Below are positions 20,875-62,736 of a stretch of 64,000 nucleotides of DNA, piece after piece. The stretch comes from an uncultured archaeon. Its GTDB lineage: Archaea > Aenigmatarchaeota > Aenigmatarchaeia > CG10238-14. Location: the NCBI GenBank assembly GCA_964392445.1, contig CAYMPD010000004.1, positions 1 through 64,000 of the forward strand, written 5' to 3'. Each line of letters opens with the position of its first letter. Position 1 is the stretch's first letter. The position numbers were made by a program, and so were the translations under genes. The notes under the pieces were generated by a model, which was not told the origin of the DNA, did not search any database, and saw nothing but the letters and a program-made list of their open reading frames with translations.

Positions 20875-21102
20875 TTCACTCGTAAGAATAGTTCTGAAGA
20901 AATTTTTGCTTCTAAGATTGCTTCTAAGGGTAGAATAACTATACCGATTAGTCTTAGGGCTAAACTTGGTTGGTTAGAGGGTAAAGAAGTTAAAATTAGA
21001 GTTTCTGGGGATAGTTTAATTCTTTCTGTTAATGGTCAGAATGGTGTAAAGGTTAGCATAGATGATTGTGGCTCATCTGGACCTGGTTCAATTCCAGATT
21101 GA
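20875..21102 (+). pseudogene. AbrB/MazE/SpoVT-type DNA-binding frame without a canonical start, running through tRNA-His
   Basis: Hand translation KIASKGRITIPISLRAKLGWLEGKEVKI; frame opens after TAG 20872 with TTC 5 nt after GGTGA. Confidence 0.6.
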
Positions 21103-21104
21103 CC
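21034..21104 (+). tRNA. tRNA-His(GTG), atypical or damaged 3' acceptor strand
   Basis: GATGA-TTGTGGC-TCATC anticodon arm, GTTCAATTC T-loop, G-1 and C73. Confidence 0.7.
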
Positions 21105-21129
21105 TTGGTAAAAATAGAGGTGAATAAAA

Positions 21130-21861
21130 ATGAAAAAAATAGGAATAATAGGTGGTATGGGACCTGAGGGAACTGCGGATTTGTACATGAAAATAGTAAG
21201 ATATTACCAGGATAATTTTGGAGCAAAGTACGATAAAGATTTCCCACCGATGATGATCTACAGTGTCCCAATACCTGATCTAGTTGAAAATCTGGAAAAT
21301 GAAAAAATAACTTTGGATATGTTATCTGAGGCAGTGAAGACATTGGAAAATGTTGGTTGCGATTTCCTAGTAATAGCGTGCAACACAGTCCAGTTTCTAT
21401 TAGATGATCTTAGAGAATCAGTTAAAATACCAATCCTGGGAATAGCCGAAATAAGTGCTAGGTTTGTGTCAAACAAAAGTTATAAAAAAGTGGGAATATT
21501 AGGAACAGAGGCAACTATATCTCAGAAAAAAGTTTATGAAAAAGATTTTCAGGAAATTGGGGTTGAATTAATTAAACCAATGAAAGATGACCAAGAAGAA
21601 TTAACTAGAATAATAATGAACCAACTTGCAGGTGAAACAACAAAAAAGGAAAAAGATAACTTGAAGACGATAATTGAAAACTTGGAAACCCGTGGAACAG
21701 AAGCTGTTTTAATAGCATGTACAGACTTACCACCAATAATAAATCAGGAAGACTTTGATATCCCGATAATCGATTGCACACAAGTTTATGCTGATGAGGC
21801 GGCGAGATTATCTACTTTTAAATCTAAATTCAATAATAATGTAGGAGATAATTATGTCTAA
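21130..21861 (+). CDS. PLP-independent amino-acid racemase (Asp/Glu/RacX family), two-Cys
   Basis: IGIIGGMGP, IACNT, IACTDLP. Confidence 0.9.
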   Translation: MKKIGIIGGMGPEGTADLYMKIVRYYQDNFGAKYDKDFPPMMIYSVPIPDLVENLENEKITLDMLSEAVKTLENVGCDFLVIACNTVQFLLDDLRESVKIPILGIAEISARFVSNKSYKKVGILGTEATISQKKVYEKDFQEIGVELIKPMKDDQEELTRIIMNQLAGETTKKEKDNLKTIIENLETRGTEAVLIACTDLPPIINQEDFDIPIIDCTQVYADEAARLSTFKSKFNNNVGDNYV

Positions 21862-23155
21862 TAAATTCCAACCACCAAGAGGGACAAGAGATTTTCTCCC
21901 AGAAGAAATGATACTTAGGGAAAAAGTGTTTGATACTGTGAAAAAGGTTTTTAAAAGATATGGTTATGATCCCGCTAAAACACCTGCTTTTGAAAATTTC
22001 GATCTTTTTGCAATGAAAGAATCAATCGGTGAAGGAGAACAGGATAAATTGTATGTATTCGAGGATAAATCTGAGCGAAAGTTAGCGTTAAGATTCGATC
22101 AAACAGTTCCATTAGCAAGATTGGTAGCCACAAATCCTCAGTTACCAAAACCTTTCAAAAGATATGAGATATCAAGAGTTTGGAGATATGAGGATACAAG
22201 AAGAGGACGTTACCGTGAATTCTGGCAATGCGATGTTGATATAGTCGGTTCAAGAGAAATGTCGGCAGATTCTGAAATAATTGATTGTGCGTTGACAATA
22301 ATGGAAGAATTGGGTTTTGAGGATTGCTACGTTAGAATTAATAACAGAAAATTATTATCAGGGATAATCCGATTTGCAGGAGTTGAAGAAAATAAAGTAA
22401 TAGAAGCATTCCGAACGATTGACAAGCTCGACAAGATTGGGATTGGTGGTGTTAAAAAAGAATTGAATGAAAGGGGAATAGAAGACCAAACCGCAGAAAA
22501 AATAATCGAAATAATAGGATTAGAAGGGGAACCGAGAGAAATATTGTCCAAAGTCAAAGATTATTTTGGTGATATCAAAGAAGGTCTGGAAGGTGTGAAA
22601 GAGCTAGAAGAATTAATTAAGAATCTTGAGATGATGGGAAAAGAAAATGTTATCTTTGACATAAGTCTCGCTCGTGGTTTGGATTATTACACTTCAACAA
22701 TTTTTGAGCTTATGGGAAAAGACGAGAAAATAGGTAGTCTGGCAGGAGGAGGAAGATACGATAAAATGATCGGTGCTTTTACTGGCAACAAGAAAGAAAT
22801 ACCTGCAGTGGGCATAGCATTAGGAATAGAAAGAATAATTGATCTTCTGAAAGAAAGGGGAGGTATTTCCCAAAAAACTTACACCAAGGTTTTCGTAATA
22901 AATGTTAATGATCAAGTAAGGGAAAAATCTGTAAAAATATCCCAAGAACTCCGTCAATCAGGAATAAACACCCAGAATGATATCATGGGAAGACCGCTAA
23001 GTAAACAGCTTGACTATGCCAATTCTCTAGGAATACCTTACACAGTTATAGTCGGTCCAAAAGAAGTGGAATCAAATAGATTCAAACTCAAGAACATGAA
23101 AACAGGAGAAGAAACAGAATTAACTCTCGAAAAGATAATCGAAACTCTTTCTTAG
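21854..23155 (+). CDS. hisS: Histidyl-tRNA synthetase
   Basis: RGTRDF, RFDQTVP, GRYREFWQCD, RGLDYY, GGGRYD. Confidence 0.96.
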   Translation: MSNKFQPPRGTRDFLPEEMILREKVFDTVKKVFKRYGYDPAKTPAFENFDLFAMKESIGEGEQDKLYVFEDKSERKLALRFDQTVPLARLVATNPQLPKPFKRYEISRVWRYEDTRRGRYREFWQCDVDIVGSREMSADSEIIDCALTIMEELGFEDCYVRINNRKLLSGIIRFAGVEENKVIEAFRTIDKLDKIGIGGVKKELNERGIEDQTAEKIIEIIGLEGEPREILSKVKDYFGDIKEGLEGVKELEELIKNLEMMGKENVIFDISLARGLDYYTSTIFELMGKDEKIGSLAGGGRYDKMIGAFTGNKKEIPAVGIALGIERIIDLLKERGGISQKTYTKVFVINVNDQVREKSVKISQELRQSGINTQNDIMGRPLSKQLDYANSLGIPYTVIVGPKEVESNRFKLKNMKTGEETELTLEKIIETLS

Positions 23156-55757: not shown

Positions 55758-55832
55758 TGGACCCGATGGGATTTGAACCCATGATCTCCTCGTCCGAAGC
55801 GAGGCGCATTATCCAAACTCTGCTACAGGTCC
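55758..55832 (-). tRNA. tRNA-Arg(TCG)
   Basis: Complete cloverleaf; CCTCG-CTTCGGA-CGAGG anticodon arm; GTTCAAATC T-loop. Confidence 0.93.
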
Positions 55833-56820: not shown

Positions 56821-56870
56821 AGAATTATATTGGGATTTGAGGGTTTAAAGGATTTTGATAGTAAAATTCA

Positions 56871-56961
56871 CGCCCCGAGCAGGACTCGAACCTGCGGCCT
56901 TCTGGTTAACAGCTTCAGCCCTGAATTCAGGTCAACTGCTCTACCACTGAGCTACCGGGGC
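56871..56961 (-). tRNA. tRNA-Asn(GTT) copy A, 19-nt intron at 30/31 (56914..56932)
   Basis: Cloverleaf after intron removal; BHB helix CAGT/GCTG; begins 1 nt after the asnS stop. Confidence 0.9.
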
Positions 56962-56962
56962 A

Positions 56963-58258
56963 TCAAGGTCTCATTCTACCCATGGTTCTTGGAAATGGAA
57001 CTGTTTCACGAATATTTTCAATTCCACAAATCCACATAACAACTCTTTCCAATCCCATACCAAATCCTGAGTGAGGAACCGAACCATACTTCCTTAAATC
57101 CATATACCATTGGTAATCCTTTTTCTTCAAGCCAAATTCTTTAATTCTCTTTTTCAGTGCTTTTGGATTATCTATTCTTTGACTTCCACCTATTATCTCA
57201 CCATAACCTTCGGGGGCAATAATGTCGTTTGAAAGAGTTAATTTTGGATTTTCAGGATCAGGTTCCATGTAAAAAGCCTTAATTTTTGTTGGAAATCTGT
57301 GGATAATTATCGGTTTTTCAAACTGCTTGGAGATAAATCTTTCTTGAGGAGCACCAAAATCGTCCAGATATTCAATATCAAAATCGTTCTTTTGTAACAA
57401 CTCTATGGTCTCATCATAACTTATCCTTGGGAATGGTGGTTCTATTTTTTCGAGTTTTTCGATATCTCTTCCTAGTTCTTTTAATTGTCTTTTATTCTTC
57501 TTTAACACTCCTTTAACTATCGCTGTAATCAATCCTTCTTGAAGTTTAATATTATCTTCAAAGTCATAGAAAGCCATCTCAGGCTCAAGCATCCAGAATT
57601 CGGCCAAATGCTTTGGTGTATGAGACTTTTCCGCGCGGAAAGTAGGACCAAAGCAATAAACCTTTCCTAATGATGGAACAACAGCCTCACTGTATAACTG
57701 ACCACTTTGGGCAAGATAAACCTTACCACCAGGGTATTTTGTTTCAAATAATGTAGTACTTTCCTCACAACAGGTTGGAGTCAATATAGGAGTGTCTACT
57801 CGATAAAAACCTTGAGAATCCAAGAAATCAATCGCACTTTTAATAACGGTTGATCTTATCCTAAGAATAGGTCTTTGACTTGGGCTTCTTAACCACAAGT
57901 GACGGTTACTTAGGAGAAAATCGATTCCATGGTCTTTTTTACCTAGAGGGTAATCGTCTGCTACCTGGAGAACCTTAATATCATTAATCTCTATCTCATA
58001 CCCATCTGGAGCTCTTTCATCTTCTTTTACTTTACCTTCGATTATAACCGAGGATTCTTGTGTTAATTTCTCAGCATCTTCAAACGTTTTTTTGTCAACA
58101 TTATCTTTATGGATTGTTGCCTGAATGGTCCCAGACCCGTCTCGGATGATGAAGAATTGAACACCACCACTTGACCTCAGATTCTCTACCCATCCACCTA
58201 GTTTGACTTTGCCTTTGGTTTTATCATCGAGTATATTTTCTATTTTGTTCAGTTTCAT
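56963..58258 (-). CDS. asnS: Asparaginyl-tRNA synthetase
   Basis: OB-fold N-terminus, LAQSGQLY, FRAE, HLAEFWMLEPE, EIIGGSQR, GFGMGLER. Confidence 0.93.
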   Translation of the reverse strand: MKLNKIENILDDKTKGKVKLGGWVENLRSSGGVQFFIIRDGSGTIQATIHKDNVDKKTFEDAEKLTQESSVIIEGKVKEDERAPDGYEIEINDIKVLQVADDYPLGKKDHGIDFLLSNRHLWLRSPSQRPILRIRSTVIKSAIDFLDSQGFYRVDTPILTPTCCEESTTLFETKYPGGKVYLAQSGQLYSEAVVPSLGKVYCFGPTFRAEKSHTPKHLAEFWMLEPEMAFYDFEDNIKLQEGLITAIVKGVLKKNKRQLKELGRDIEKLEKIEPPFPRISYDETIELLQKNDFDIEYLDDFGAPQERFISKQFEKPIIIHRFPTKIKAFYMEPDPENPKLTLSNDIIAPEGYGEIIGGSQRIDNPKALKKRIKEFGLKKKDYQWYMDLRKYGSVPHSGFGMGLERVVMWICGIENIRETVPFPRTMGRMRP

Positions 58259-58340
58259 GATTATCAATTAGAATTTGTTAAGATAAGTTTAATAAATTTT
58301 GGACTAAGATTATTAATAACTGAAAGAGAATAACTTTTTT

Positions 58341-58661
58341 ATGTCAACGAACGGGCTACCTTATGATATTATGAATGCATCAACACGTGTTAGAACTCAT
58401 CCAATGATTTATATGATTGAGGAAAAAGAAGATAGAGGTTTAACATATATTGAAGTAATTGTCCCTGGGGGAAGTTATTGTGGTACTGCAGCAAAATCTA
58501 GATTAGCAAAAGGGGACCTTTCTCCAGAAACTAGTAGTCTAGATAGATTAGGAACTAGTGTTTTTCGATATTATCCTAAGACAGCCCAAGTTCAGAATTT
58601 AAGTAATAGGATAACTAGAGTAATGCAAGAAGCAGGATTTTTACTAATCTCTCGGAGTTAA
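58341..58661 (+). CDS. Hypothetical protein
   Basis: 106-aa ATG ORF. Confidence 0.5.
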   Translation: MSTNGLPYDIMNASTRVRTHPMIYMIEEKEDRGLTYIEVIVPGGSYCGTAAKSRLAKGDLSPETSSLDRLGTSVFRYYPKTAQVQNLSNRITRVMQEAGFLLISRS

Positions 58662-58729
58662 ATATATGAGACATTTGTATCATTTTTACTTGAATACATA
58701 TTAAAACTCGTCCACCAATTTCAATTAAT

Positions 58730-59212
58730 ATGATTGGAAGGACTAGAAATGGATATGGAGGAACTTTAGGGCCGAGAGAAAGTACAGAGAAATTTTCATT
58801 AGCATGGAGTTTATCTGCTCCTATTTCAAGAGACCAAGATTTTGCGATCTATGAAGTTCCTATGGGGAAAAGTGATGGTTATAGTTCACTCGTTAGACAA
58901 ATGTTTGAAAGAGCAATGGAAGGTGCTCATGTAACAGAACCTTGTAAAGAATTCTTAAGATCTATGTTCTATGTTTCTCTTAGGCAGGGAGTACCTCCAG
59001 TTAGGTGGATACCAGTAGAAAAATTTGGAATAGACCTTTCAAAAGAAAGATATGGGATATTTGGACCCGAAGAGAATTTAGGAGAGATTGAAGGAGAGCT
59101 AATAAGATTCCACGTTCATATTATAGAAGCTTATAGGATACCAGAATTAAGAGAAAGGGGGATGGAACTTAACAGAAGATGGAGAAGAGATTGGAATGAA
59201 AGATATGGTTGA
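58730..59212 (+). CDS. Hypothetical protein
   Basis: 160-aa ATG ORF, Arg/Glu-rich. Confidence 0.6.
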   Translation: MIGRTRNGYGGTLGPRESTEKFSLAWSLSAPISRDQDFAIYEVPMGKSDGYSSLVRQMFERAMEGAHVTEPCKEFLRSMFYVSLRQGVPPVRWIPVEKFGIDLSKERYGIFGPEENLGEIEGELIRFHVHIIEAYRIPELRERGMELNRRWRRDWNERYG

Positions 59213-59226
59213 AATTAAAAATAAAT

Positions 59227-59502
59227 TTAGTCAATTTCTTGTCTTTGCAGAAGTCTTTGATTGATATCAAAATAACCAACAGTTAAAACATATTTCCCAT
59301 CTAATACCGTTCTGTAATCTTCTACAGTATAATTTCTTTCCTCTACCTCATCTAATAATAATCTTGAAACTTCACCTTCCTTATTTAAAAAATATGTAAC
59401 ATTCCAGGTATCTAACATTTGTCCTATCCCAGTGTCAGAACAATCCAATACCCCTACTTTATCAAAATGAATTTTTATCATGCTGAAATCATTATTAAAC
59501 AA
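59227..59502 (-). CDS. Hypothetical protein
   Basis: 91-aa ORF. Confidence 0.5.
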   Translation of the reverse strand: MFNNDFSMIKIHFDKVGVLDCSDTGIGQMLDTWNVTYFLNKEGEVSRLLLDEVEERNYTVEDYRTVLDGKYVLTVGYFDINQRLLQRQEID

Positions 59503-59546
59503 AACTTAAATTTCTTACTTTAGACTTAAAAAAGAAAAAAATTAAA

Positions 59547-59641
59547 CGCCTCGGGTCGGACTCGAACCGACGGCCTTCTGGTTAACAGCTTCAGCCCTGA
59601 AAAAGTCAGGTCAACTGCTCTACCTACTGAGCTACCGAGGC
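59547..59641 (-). tRNA. tRNA-Asn(GTT) copy B, 22-nt intron at 30/31 (59590..59611)
   Basis: Cloverleaf after intron removal; same BHB; first 18 nt lie inside the gatB ORF. Confidence 0.9.
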
Positions 59642-61036
59642 TTGAATAATTTCACGAATTTCTCTTGGGTTTCCCGCTGATTTTATTTCTTTTAAAACCT
59701 GTCCAACCAAAAAATCCAATGCTTTTTCTTCTCCAGATTTATAATCTTTCACTGCCTCTTTGTTTTTCTGTAGTATTTTATCAACTATTTTTTTAAGTTC
59801 TTGTTTACTCACCATTTTTAGACCTTTTTTACTTAAATATTCTTCGGGGTATTCACCAGTCATGGTTATTTCTTTAATCATTTCTTTTCCTAATCTTTTC
59901 GGGATTTCACCTTTATCCATCATTTCAAGGAATTTAGCAAAGTTTTCTACAGATATTTTGGAGTTTTTAATCCTGATCCCCTGATAATTCAAGCACTTCA
60001 GAAGATGAGTAATCATCCATTTAGCAATCATCTGGGGATTTTCTAATAATTCACAGCATTCTTCGAAGAATCTAGAAAAATCCTTCCCTGTGTAAACTAT
60101 CACTTTGGCTTGATAATCTGATAAATCATACTTTTCCTGGTACCTTTCCACTAAATGATCAGGTAATTCGGGCAGAGTGGTCTTTATTCCTTGTTTCCAT
60201 TCATTATTAATTTCGATTTTAGTCAGGTCTGGCTCAAAAATGTACCCATAATCCTCTTCCATCTCCTTTGTTCTCAGAGTTTTAGTTATTCCTTGAGATT
60301 CATCAAATCCTCTTGTTTCTCTTTCAACCTTCCCTCCATTTCTAAGTACACTTTTTTGCCTAACAACCTCATAATTCAACGCTTTTTCAATCTTAGCAAA
60401 ACCACTCATATTCTTGATTTCAACCCTTTTCCCGCCTTCTATTGATATGTTGACATCTACACGCATAGATCCTTCAAGTGAAGAGTCATAAACTCCAAGA
60501 TATTCAAGCATAGTCGAAAGTTTAGTCAAGAATTCCCTTACCTCTTTCGGGTCTCTAAAATCGGGTTCGGTTACTATCTCACATAAGGGGGTCCCAGAGC
60601 GGTTATAATCGATTAGAACATACTTGGATGTAGTTATGTCTCCACCTACATGAACAAGTTTAGCAGGGTCTTCCTCCAAGTGAATCCTAGTAATGTTAAT
60701 TTTTTTCTCCTCTCCGTTTGAGTTAATTTTTAAGTAACCTTTTCTTGCGAGGGGAATTTCAAATTGAGTTATCTGGAAGTTCTTTGCCATATCGGGATAA
60801 AGATAGGATTTTCTAGAGAAGAACATTTTTGTTAATATTTCACAATTTAACGCATGAGCAATTGATATACCATAATCCAACGCTTTCTTGTTGACTTTTG
60901 GTTTTGATCCTGGGAAACCAAGACATATAGGACAGGTAGTAGAGTTAGGTTTAGAGTCTCTATAATCCGTGGAACAGGAGCAAAATAACTTTGATTTTGT
61001 GTTTAACTGTACATGAATTTCTAATCCTATTTTCAT
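59624..61036 (-). CDS. gatB: Asp/Glu-tRNA amidotransferase subunit B
   Basis: IGLEIHVQL, CPICLGFPG, YPDMAKNFQITQ, HLEEDPA, VEIKN. Confidence 0.96.
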   Translation of the reverse strand: MKIGLEIHVQLNTKSKLFCSCSTDYRDSKPNSTTCPICLGFPGSKPKVNKKALDYGISIAHALNCEILTKMFFSRKSYLYPDMAKNFQITQFEIPLARKGYLKINSNGEEKKINITRIHLEEDPAKLVHVGGDITTSKYVLIDYNRSGTPLCEIVTEPDFRDPKEVREFLTKLSTMLEYLGVYDSSLEGSMRVDVNISIEGGKRVEIKNMSGFAKIEKALNYEVVRQKSVLRNGGKVERETRGFDESQGITKTLRTKEMEEDYGYIFEPDLTKIEINNEWKQGIKTTLPELPDHLVERYQEKYDLSDYQAKVIVYTGKDFSRFFEECCELLENPQMIAKWMITHLLKCLNYQGIRIKNSKISVENFAKFLEMMDKGEIPKRLGKEMIKEITMTGEYPEEYLSKKGLKMVSKQELKKIVDKILQKNKEAVKDYKSGEEKALDFLVGQVLKEIKSAGNPREIREIIQASVAQ

Positions 61037-62457
61037 TTCATCACAGGTTGGTTTTTGTGGTAATCAGTATTTTGTTCAAATGTGTGAGCGACCTGAATCA
61101 TCTTTTTCTCTTGTAAATGATCAGCAATTATATGCATCCCAACTGGTAAACCCTCTGAGAAACCTCCTGGAACAGATATCATCGGAACACCTGCTAAGTT
61201 TGGGGGGACTGTTAGAATGTCGAGCATATAGGTCTGAAGTGGGGTCAAATCCTCAATTTCCGAGAATTTTGGTGGTAGAATTGGCATGGTCGGAGAAACA
61301 AGCACATCATACTTTTTGAAAGCTTTCTTGAAGTCTTGAATCACTAGTGTCCTTAATTTCATCGCTTTTAGGTAGAATTGATCCCTATATCCAGCCATTC
61401 TAGCATAAGTTCCCATGATTATCCGTCTTTTAGCTTCTTGTCCAAAACCTTCTTTTCTTACCCTTGAGAAATAATCGTTGAAACTCTCTCCTGTTTTAAT
61501 TTCATTTTCCAAACCATACCTTAATCCACACAGTTTCGCAAGGTTGGTAGAAGTTTCAGACATAGCAATTATGTAATAACTAGGTAAAGCAACATCTGTG
61601 TGTGGGAGAGAGCATTCTTCGTATTTAGCACCTAAATCTTCTAGAAGTTTAATGTTTTTCCAAATTTTGTTCTTGATTTTTTCGTTTACTCCACCGCTGA
61701 AATATTCTTTCGGAACCCCAATCTTCATACCTTTGACATCATTTTTCCAGTAATCAGTATAATCCTCTTTTTCAACATCAAGTGAAGTAGAATCAATGGA
61801 ATCATGACCAGAAATTACCGAAAATAACAGTGAAGAATCCTCAACTGTTTTACCAATTGTTCCAATCTTATCCAGACTATTAGCATAACTAATCAAACCC
61901 CATCTAGAAACCGTTCCATAAGTTGGTGTTATCCCCACGGTATTTGTAAAAGATGTAGGACAACTTATAGACCCACCAGTGCTCTCGGCAATAGCAATAT
62001 GTGGAAAATCAGAAATACTTGTCAAGCAACCCGCTCCCCCTGAACTTCCTCCACACGTTCGTTCGATATCCCAAGGATTTTTAGGAAATCCAAACGGAGT
62101 GTTAATGTTAAAAACACCATGACCAAATTGATCCATACTAGTTTTCCCAATTATTACTCCACCCTCTTCTTTAACTCTTCTGGTAACATAAGAATCAAAC
62201 GGAGGAACATATTTATGAAGAATCCTTGAGCCTGCAGTAGTTTTAAGTCCTTTTGTGCATATATTGTCTTTAACTGAGATTGGAAGGCCGTAAAGCTTCC
62301 CTTTTTTAAGCGATTTTACGTCGATTTTTTCGTTTATTGTAACAAATGGTAAATATTTCTCTTGAATTTTTCGAGTTTTTTCCAGAGTTTTAGTTAAGAA
62401 ATCCTCTAAATTTAATTCCCCATTCCTGACTTTTGTTAAATACTCTTTCAGTTCCAT
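61033..62457 (-). CDS. gatA: Asp/Glu-tRNA amidotransferase subunit A
   Basis: SVKDNI, GGSSGG, STGGSI amidase signature, YARMAGYRDQFY. Confidence 0.93.
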   Translation of the reverse strand: MELKEYLTKVRNGELNLEDFLTKTLEKTRKIQEKYLPFVTINEKIDVKSLKKGKLYGLPISVKDNICTKGLKTTAGSRILHKYVPPFDSYVTRRVKEEGGVIIGKTSMDQFGHGVFNINTPFGFPKNPWDIERTCGGSSGGAGCLTSISDFPHIAIAESTGGSISCPTSFTNTVGITPTYGTVSRWGLISYANSLDKIGTIGKTVEDSSLLFSVISGHDSIDSTSLDVEKEDYTDYWKNDVKGMKIGVPKEYFSGGVNEKIKNKIWKNIKLLEDLGAKYEECSLPHTDVALPSYYIIAMSETSTNLAKLCGLRYGLENEIKTGESFNDYFSRVRKEGFGQEAKRRIIMGTYARMAGYRDQFYLKAMKLRTLVIQDFKKAFKKYDVLVSPTMPILPPKFSEIEDLTPLQTYMLDILTVPPNLAGVPMISVPGGFSEGLPVGMHIIADHLQEKKMIQVAHTFEQNTDYHKNQPVMK

Positions 62458-62736
62458 CTAAACAGCCCTTGGACCTTTAAAGTAGTCATCTTCTTTATTT
62501 TCAGCATTTCCTAACGGATCCCAATCCCATTCACAAGTTTCATCTTTCCTCCAAACATTCTTAATTTCCAGAGGCTGAAATGAAGTTTCAATCTCTTCCG
62601 TATCAACTTCTTCTATTTTTCTAAACGCTTCCAGAACATCATCTATCTGTTTTGTAAATTCCTTAACTTCTTCATCTGTCAAATCCAACCTAGCTATCTC
62701 AGCAACATGTCTAATTACGTCTTCTGATACTACCAT
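62458..62736 (-). CDS. gatC: Amidotransferase subunit C
   Basis: VAEIARLDL; tail YFKGPR; abuts gatA. Confidence 0.9.
   Translation of the reverse strand: MVVSEDVIRHVAEIARLDLTDEEVKEFTKQIDDVLEAFRKIEEVDTEEIETSFQPLEIKNVWRKDETCEWDWDPLGNAENKEDDYFKGPRAV

Follow-up and report, generated by a model that had tools for sequence, protein, structure and literature searches.

Two routes to asparaginyl-tRNA in one archaeal locus, each gene set ending in its own tRNA-Asn gene

Introduction

Why would a small archaeal genome carry two asparagine tRNA genes with the same anticodon, each attached to the genes of a different route to asparaginyl-tRNA? To our knowledge, archaea follow a textbook scheme in which tRNA-Asn is charged either directly, by asparaginyl-tRNA synthetase (AsnRS), or indirectly, by aspartylation and subsequent amidation by GatCAB, as an either/or choice and always with one kind of tRNA-Asn. 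The question is raised by a locus in the window, i.e., the whole 64,000-nucleotide stretch analysed here, which spans positions 1 to 64,000 of contig CAYMPD010000004.1 from an uncultured archaeon of the Aenigmatarchaeota (assembly GCA_964392445.1). On its minus strand, positions 56871-62736 read gatC-gatA-gatB-tRNA-Asn(B), a 1.28-kb spacer and asnS-tRNA-Asn(A). Coordinates are window positions on that contig, G000 denotes the source genome and all other G-numbers the genomes of relatives. An original prediction, made from this stretch alone, had read the arrangement as possibly a partitioned system with a dedicated tRNA for each route.

Each gene set ends in a tRNA-Asn(GUU) gene

The region consists of two operon-like gene sets, each with a tRNA-Asn(GUU) gene as its last member (Table 1). 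The predicted physical tie of either route to its own tRNA is borne out at both junctions: 1 nt separates the asnS stop codon from tRNA-Asn A, and gatB overlaps tRNA-Asn B, whose nucleotides 1-18 double as the last five codons and the stop of gatB (ASVAQ*). In G000 the gatB stop codon TAG corresponds to U16-A17-G18 in the D-loop of tRNA B, and it is the extra A17 that makes the stop. The gatB frame also ends within the downstream tRNA-Asn in three relatives (G002:C25, G033:C38 and G057:C12); excision of the tRNA from a gatB co-transcript would strip the stop codon off the gatB mRNA.

The enzyme identities proposed for gatC-gatA-gatB and asnS agree with NCBIfam and Pfam matches. All three GatCAB subunits match the GatC, GatA and GatB models, with gatA and gatB overlapping by 4 nt. 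The GatA score lies 2.7 bits below the curated NCBIfam cut-off; the protein aligns over its full length with A. aeolicus GatA (3H0L, E 1e-121), and its KDN, GGSSGG and GGSI catalytic motifs are intact. The asnS product is a full-length class IIb enzyme with an OB-fold anticodon-binding domain as well as a catalytic domain. On other models it reaches 366 bits (best aspartyl-tRNA synthetase, AspRS), 321.6 bits (second AspRS) and 192 bits (AsnA-like), and a mislabelled aspS was ruled out by these scores together with the presence of a separate AspRS gene in the genome.

Two tRNAs with one anticodon and different D-loops

Two full-length tRNA-Asn genes with GTT anticodons stand where they had been predicted, both scoring above the Rfam tRNA gathering score of 29 bits, and in both spliced products the anticodon loop reads CTGTTAA, with anticodon GUU and discriminator G73. 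tRNA A has a 7-nt D-loop, AGTGGTA, which is devoid of nucleotide 17, and measures 72 nt once spliced; tRNA B has an 8-nt D-loop, AGTAGGTA, with A17, measures 73 nt and has no encoded CCA. The differences quoted in the original prediction are all correct: besides nucleotide 17, the two genes differ in the acceptor stem (GCCCCGG/TCGGGGC vs GCCTCGG/CCGAGGC, pairs 4:69 and 7:66) and in the T-stem (GCAGG/CCTGC vs GTCGG/CCGAC, pairs 50:64 and 51:63). Acceptor, D and T stems are fully paired in both, the T-loop is TTCGAGT in both, and the anticodon stem is weak in both (G27/A43 mismatch, U28-G42), with RNAfold failing to recover the anticodon arm. A and B are alike in all known AsnRS identity elements (GUU, G73), and both carry the known archaeal GatCAB features, namely a 5-nt variable loop and G49; the genuine tRNA-Asp of the genome (C1:110206-110329) has a 4-nt variable loop and a long D-loop.

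The pairings are kept in relatives

Both pairings are conserved across the order, which counts 118 genomes from 46 genera, 65 with AsnRS and 39 with GatB over the cut-off. In about 25 genomes, asnS has a tRNA-Asn gene no more than about 150 nt downstream, and a few more have one just upstream; for gatB, the same downstream distance holds in about 15 genomes, with 1-3 kb in several others. Each of the two enzyme-tRNA junctions is hence kept in many genomes. As a control, the 80 loci carrying the most similar AsnRS from outside, at 50-57% identity and almost all from bacteria, were inspected for a tRNA-Asn within 3 kb, and none was found; import of a ready-made asnS-tRNA unit from bacteria was rejected on this count.

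The D-loop type follows the route

To relate tRNA form to route, we typed 77 tRNA-Asn genes in the order, plus hand-read cases, and defined as A17 type those with the 8-nt D-loop AGYAGGTR, usually accompanied by the T-loop TTCGAGT. Counted per genome, the A17 type is found in 27 genomes, 26 of them GatB-positive, and GatB in a single one of the 51 typed genomes without it (26 and 1 against 1 and 50). In the 19 genomes that have GatB and no AsnRS, the D-loop is AGYAGGTR in 19/19 and the T-loop TTCGAGT in 18/19. Conversely, A17 occurs in 0/52 tRNAs from GatB-negative genomes, whose D-loops are 7 nt long (AGYGGTA) or read AGYTGGTA and whose T-loops are mostly TTCRAAT. The D-loop difference noted in the original prediction thus co-varies with route, A17 going with GatCAB and the 7-nt or U17 form with AsnRS-only genomes. 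There is one exception on either side: in G103, which has A17 but no GatB, the tRNA stands at the end of a contig, at the place expected for gatB, and in G104, which has GatB but no A17, the D-loop is 9 nt long.

The association extends to the class, for which 301 genomes were sampled and the listed genomes outside the order were counted: GatB accompanies the A17 type in 41 of 47 genomes and is present in 5 of 25 without it (41 and 6 against 5 and 20). At least seven genera (g1, g14, g18, g21, g23, g30 and g41) contain both states, and the direction is always the same. The anticodon stem tracks the host family, not the D-loop type. Furthermore, G107, which has GatB and no AsnRS, carries an A17 tRNA-Asn 150 kb from gatB, the body of which is one base pair from that of its U17 congeners; this unlinked A17 tRNA on a U17-like body argues for change in place.

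Genomes that combine both routes

AsnRS and GatB occur together in eight genomes of the order (G000, G002, G016, G033, G057, G058, G081 and G097), and the genes of the two routes form a cluster in four: G000, G016 (gatB-tRNA-asnS), G033 (asnS-gatA-gatB-tRNA) and G057. Two tRNA-Asn types coexist in G000, G002, G033 and G081, always as an A17 type by gatB plus a non-A17 type. The A17 type is present in seven of the eight, with none typed in G058, and no dual-route genome with the non-A17 type only was found among the eight. G016, G057 and G097 have the A17 type only, with asnS followed by nothing or by tRNA-Arg and by no tRNA-Asn; because no other type was found there, the AsnRS of these three genomes must use an A17-type tRNA.

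The closest comparison is provided by G002, a member of the same genus, where the asnS-linked tRNA has the D-loop AGTGGTA and the gatB-linked tRNA AG[intron]TAGGTA, so that the same two types stand at the same two gene sets. Between G000 and G002, identity is 77% for GatB and 74% for AsnRS, and the AsnRS of the genus is monophyletic in the AsnRS tree (100/100); together with the retained arrangement, this indicates that the two-tRNA organisation predates the split of the two genomes. The B orthologs differ by four compensatory base-pair changes, which argues that the B gene is under selection for structure. The GatB of G000 and G002 forms a long, poorly placed branch in the GatB tree, and grouping of the four tRNAs by genome or by gene set is backed by 3 vs 2 sites, a hand count of weak signal.

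The gatB-linked tRNA of G002 has its 22-nt intron within the D-loop rather than at position 30/31. In the same genome, an insertion of about 870 bp with a 273-aa open reading frame separates gatB from tRNA-Asn (L080, G002:C25, 190-1100); it is bordered by an 18-nt direct repeat that matches the 5' end of the tRNA (AAAGCTCTGGTAGCTCAG).

Introns of the two tRNA genes

In G000, both tRNA-Asn genes are interrupted at position 30/31 by introns of the same architecture, whose differences are confined to the hairpin loop. Drawn by hand, the bulge-helix-bulge comprises a 4-bp central helix (CAGU/GCUG), 3-nt bulges UGA and AAG, a 5-bp inner helix (CCUGA/UCAGG) and an outer helix of 2 bp only; an RNAfold run did not recover the motif. 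The predicted spliced product equals, base for base across the junction (GAGCAGTTGGCTGTTAACC), the intron-less tRNA-Asn of the congeners G001 and G003, which fixes the exon boundaries; these intron-less genes sit after asnS. A splicing-endonuclease gene is encoded in the genome, and removal of both introns is predicted from the sequence.

The 30/31 position recurs in many relatives, whereas at this site the G002 orthologs carry either another intron or no intron. The near-identity of the two G000 introns, unlike the G002 orthologs, suggests that the middle of the gene may have been exchanged between the A and B copies.

Many tRNAs of G000 have one or two introns at non-canonical sites. ARAGORN calls for A and B, Ser(tga) and '???', were discarded as wrong, because each gene carries an intron at 30/31 that misled the program. 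Its 'tRNA-Asp' at C1:40731 was likewise discarded: this gene (C1:40731-40840) has A73 and two introns, placed in the D-stem and the anticodon arm, and reads more like a putative tRNA-Ile(UAU) or related species.

Asparagine supply in the source genome

The G000 assembly comprises 1.215 Mb in 54 contigs with 34.5% G+C and is 94.9% complete and 0.37% contaminated. In this 94.9%-complete genome, neither AsnA nor AsnB nor an archaeal AsnA-like paralog was found over the cut-off, the weak AsnB matches below it corresponding to a 594-aa amidotransferase frame and a 305-aa frame. With neither AsnA nor AsnB found, asparagine would be made through the indirect route alone, and GatCAB indeed looks like its sole source. 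GlnRS was not found in the genome, where the sole match is GluRS-like (311 bits vs a cut-off of 426); GatD (484 bits) and GatE are encoded, and GatCAB is therefore not needed for glutamine.

A single AspRS of the archaeal type (513 bits) is encoded. The K85P exchange is reported to render the T. kodakarensis AspRS non-discriminating. Aligned to that enzyme (1B8A), the G000 AspRS carries Glu in place of W26 and Pro in place of K85; the two residues were rejected as a marker of non-discrimination, since they showed no tracking of GatCAB in 41 relatives.

The GatE frame (G000:C3:15343-16782, 484 aa) covers the GatE model only at 2-263 and 397-617, so that the middle insertion domain seems to be missing; GatE of relatives is similar in size. 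A truncated AsnRS paralog of about 310-335 aa stands beside asnS in five AsnRS-only relatives (G010:C2, G013:C27, G017:C10, G024:C1 and G040:C1) and has the architecture of the archaeal AsnA-like asparagine synthetase; none is present in G000.

What the two tRNAs may do

On balance we favour, at about even confidence, a one-sided specialisation in which tRNA B is the one suited to the indirect route, and both A and B are probably substrates of AsnRS. Each tRNA would be co-transcribed with its enzyme genes and cut from the co-transcript by RNase P and the splicing endonuclease. On the indirect route, AspRS would place Asp on tRNA-Asn for amidation by GatCAB, as the cell's only asparagine synthesis, and AsnRS would reuse scavenged or recycled free asparagine. 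With its A17 (and G59) 'variable pocket' signature, tRNA B is the probable competent or preferred AspRS/GatCAB substrate, and the tail domain of GatB probably reads that signature. tRNA A, which is devoid of nucleotide 17 like the tRNA-Asn of AsnRS-only relatives, would probably be served mainly by AsnRS, giving no clean split between the two.

We take positions 17 and 59 to be part of the variable pocket at the tRNA elbow. Positions 20 and 59 of that pocket are named in PMC9976931, the GatB tail domain touches the tRNA D-loop (PMC2330236), and archaeal GatCAB reads the tertiary core and the D-loop rather than the 1:72 pair (PMC2811023, PMC2330236); these contacts make GatB a plausible reader of the signature. 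The constraint apparently lies with GatCAB, whose use goes with keeping an A17 tRNA-Asn, and AsnRS can evidently work with either tRNA form. The wider generalisation, namely that throughout the class A17 (with G59) is a positive element for the AspRS/GatCAB step which a tRNA-Asn devoid of nucleotide 17 escapes, we regard as doubtful.

Several observations weigh against this one-sided specialisation. By published rules A and B should both enter both routes, since the known AsnRS determinants (GUU anticodon and G73, PMC9976931) and the GatCAB features are shared. GatB occurs with a non-A17 tRNA-Asn in G104 within the order and in G123, G130, G161, G164 and G195 within the class, so that A17 is not an absolute requirement. 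Almost identical A17 tRNAs are found in G027, G038 and G051, which belong to three families, and the GatB proteins of G027 and G038 are sisters (100/100), which suggests that the gene set and its tRNA move together and that the covariation may be partly hitch-hiking. Related genomes are moreover non-independent, so Fisher p-values overstate the association; His26 or Pro85 occurs in relatives without GatCAB, and hence the supposed non-discriminating residues do not track GatCAB. Finally, the data come from metagenome-assembled genomes, in which a missing gene or tRNA means 'not found' and not proven absence.

The same hitch-hiking pattern is central to an alternative that we consider a real though clearly weaker candidate, namely that the tRNAs are interchangeable: both routes would charge both, a copy per gene set would tie tRNA supply to enzyme expression, and the D-loop types would be historical markers. 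Tight linkage means that enzyme and tRNA are gained and lost jointly, in keeping with the near-identical A17 tRNAs of three families and the sister GatB of two; all published identity elements are common to A and B, GatB-positive lineages with 7- or 9-nt D-loops exist, and in single-tRNA dual-route genomes one tRNA serves both AsnRS and GatCAB. However, A17 is also found where the tRNA is unlinked to gatB (G032, G068 and G107), in G107 on a body like that of U17 congeners, and the anticodon stem goes with the host family irrespective of D-loop type. Nor was a dual-route genome with only the non-A17 type found, and G000 and G002 both retain the D-loop difference, which the suggested exchange between copies in G000 left standing.

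The stricter partition of the original prediction, with A for AsnRS only, B for AspRS and GatCAB only, and insulated pools that would switch with asparagine supply, conjecturally from a host, is in our estimate unlikely. Its components fare differently: linkage, conservation and D-loop covariation all stand, each tRNA being tied to a single route in the congeneric species G000 and G002, and G033 and G081 likewise having two types, but G016, G057 and G097 combine AsnRS and GatCAB with the A17 type only, so that AsnRS must use the A17 form. AsnRS identity is set by the anticodon and G73 (PMC9976931), and A does not differ from B in either; no feature is known that would lead the enzyme to refuse an 8-nt D-loop, and the GatCAB elements are shared as well. 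As to relatives with one copy, which the prediction had named as counter-evidence, the same three genomes have one type only and G002, G033 and G081 have two. A far more remote reading is that the second tRNA-Asn stems from mis-binning or chimeric assembly, a dosage duplicate or the leftover of a mobile element in a tRNA gene. The G002 insertion at the gatB-tRNA junction with its repeat of the tRNA 5' end, the several same-anticodon tRNA pairs of G000 and the presence of open reading frames without database match (ORFans) between the two gene sets speak for it, yet a single 90-kb contig carries both genes, at a distance of 2.6 kb, and the genome is 0.37% contaminated; moreover, neither tRNA is truncated, their stems are paired and show compensatory changes, tRNA A stands after asnS and does not flank the ORFan segment, and both enzyme-tRNA junctions recur in many genomes.

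The lineage thus departs from the textbook scheme in that both routes are repeatedly kept, each fused to a tRNA gene, and in that a single D-loop nucleotide tracks route across more than 25 genera, which yields a concrete hypothesis of how archaeal GatCAB, or an AspRS-GatCAB complex, picks its tRNA. If the class-wide A17 rule that we regard as doubtful is true, G000, G002, G033 and G081 would carry a natural same-anticodon tRNA pair, one member feeding tRNA-bound asparagine synthesis and the other reserved for direct charging and shielded from mis-aspartylation, even though the AspRS remains non-discriminating. Such a natural case of two mutually insulated tRNAs with the same anticodon would bear on tRNA identity, on the displacement of the ancestral route by AsnRS and on the engineering of orthogonal tRNAs; if it is false, the locus would remain a neat example of enzyme and tRNA genes that are passed on together as one set.

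Other features of the locus

The TATA-like AAAATTTATTAAAC upstream of asnS is a possible promoter of its own for that gene, the T-rich run after tRNA B is inferred to be an archaeal terminator-like element, and TGAATTTT after tRNA A is likewise a putative terminator-like element. The spacer holds three ORFans, which the original prediction had placed on the minus strand; this is correct for 59227-59502, and the other two lie on the plus strand. None of the three has a Pfam or NCBIfam match or a relative in the genome or in the fetched loci. We also considered them as a mobile element that duplicated the tRNA and rejected this, as no homologs were found in these searches and they are unlike the open reading frame of the G002 insertion.

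Downstream of the asnS-tRNA-Asn A set, at a distance of about 1 kb, lies tRNA-Arg(UCG) (window 55758-55832); tRNA-Arg directly follows asnS in G057, G058 and G097, and the asnS...tRNA-Arg order looks syntenic. Elsewhere in the 1.2-Mb genome, divergent same-anticodon tRNA pairs exist for His, Trp, Tyr and Lys-CUU (contigs C1, C2, C4, C6, C12, C17 and C31). One of these is itself linked to a synthetase (window 21034-23155): hisS (21854-23155, TIGR00442 405 bits) is preceded, 750 nt upstream on the same strand, by an atypical tRNA-His(GUG) that scores 35 bits in Rfam, with an Asp/Glu-racemase-family gene in between, and a second, quite different tRNA-His is found on contig C17. The tRNA-His/hisS arrangement is therefore another synthetase/cognate-tRNA linkage with a same-anticodon pair.

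Table 1. Features of the two gene sets and the intervening spacer, in window coordinates
Feature	Position	Strand	Remarks
gatC	62458..62736	-	TIGR00135 71.3 bits, cut-off 47.1; Pfam GatC
gatA (glutaminase subunit)	61033..62457	-	TIGR00132 478.4 bits, cut-off 481.1
gatB	59624..61036	-	NF004012 596 bits; GatB_N and GatB_Yqey domains
tRNA-Asn(GUU) B	59547..59641	-	Rfam RF00005 49.6 bits
Intron of tRNA B, 22 nt	59590..59611	-	tRNA position 30/31
T-rich run (T7, T6)	59526..59546	-	directly 3' of tRNA B
ORFan, 91 aa	59227..59502	-	no Pfam/NCBIfam match
ORFan, 160 aa	58730..59212	+	positive GC skew
ORFan, 106 aa	58341..58661	+	positive GC skew
TATA-like AAAATTTATTAAAC	58287..58300	-	about 30-40 nt upstream of asnS ATG (58258); from sequence only
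asnS (AsnRS)	56963..58267	-	likely start ATG at 58258; NF003037 541.7 bits, cut-off 414
tRNA-Asn(GUU) A	56871..56961	-	Rfam RF00005 49.4 bits
Intron of tRNA A, 19 nt	56914..56932	-	tRNA position 30/31
TGAATTTT, short T-run	56863..56870	-	directly 3' of tRNA A

Comparison with known systems

Parts of this picture are already known: dual routes, archaeal GatCAB/tRNA-Asn co-evolution and indirect-route operons with a tRNA have all been described. Archaea are described as having GatCAB when they are without AsnRS (PMC2811023), and among the papers accessible to our literature search we found no description of archaea with both routes, of two same-anticodon tRNA-Asn each fused to one route, of an A17/G59 signature tied to GatCAB or of a form devoid of nucleotide 17 tied to AsnRS.

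The closest parallels are Thermus thermophilus and Deinococcus radiodurans (also Bdellovibrio and Legionella), which combine AsnRS with a non-discriminating AspRS and GatCAB and have neither AsnA nor AsnB (PMC2330236, PMC4206432). As in G000, the routes coexist, and, as proposed here, the indirect one is the sole asparagine synthesis and AsnRS uses free asparagine; Bdellovibrio follows the same sole-route logic (PMC4206432). GatCAB is unneeded for glutamine in both settings, owing to GlnRS in the Thermus/Deinococcus kind and to GatDE here. Unlike the archaeal locus, those bacteria have one tRNA-Asn kind (U1-A72) for both routes, and Thermus and Deinococcus have a second AspRS, whereas the archaeon studied here has a single AspRS and two variants of tRNA-Asn, one fused to the gene set of each route.

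In Methanothermobacter and Methanosarcina, archaeal GatCAB and tRNA-Asn have co-evolved such that the first base pair is ignored and the D-loop, position 49 and the variable-loop length are read (PMC1635274; Namgoong 2007 via PMC2330236 and PMC2811023). The published elements are tRNA-Asp features that block use; they serve to tell tRNA-Asn from tRNA-Asp rather than to distinguish between kinds of tRNA-Asn; the long D-loop and the 4-nt variable loop of tRNA-Asp stop archaeal GatCAB from using it (PMC1635274, PMC2330236). Clustering of indirect-route genes, sometimes with their own tRNA, is known from the SepRS-SepCysS(-tRNA-Cys) operons of DPANN archaea and some bacteria (PMC8762117), which concern another amino acid and other enzymes and for which no two same-anticodon tRNAs paired with rival routes are described (PMC8762117). 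A division of labour between parallel enzymes by tRNA features outside the anticodon has its precedent in the GluRS1 and GluRS2 of Helicobacter pylori, acting on tRNA-Glu and tRNA-Gln (PMC2777447); there the enzyme is duplicated and the tRNA anticodons differ, whereas here it is the tRNA that is duplicated and the anticodon that stays the same (PMC2777447).

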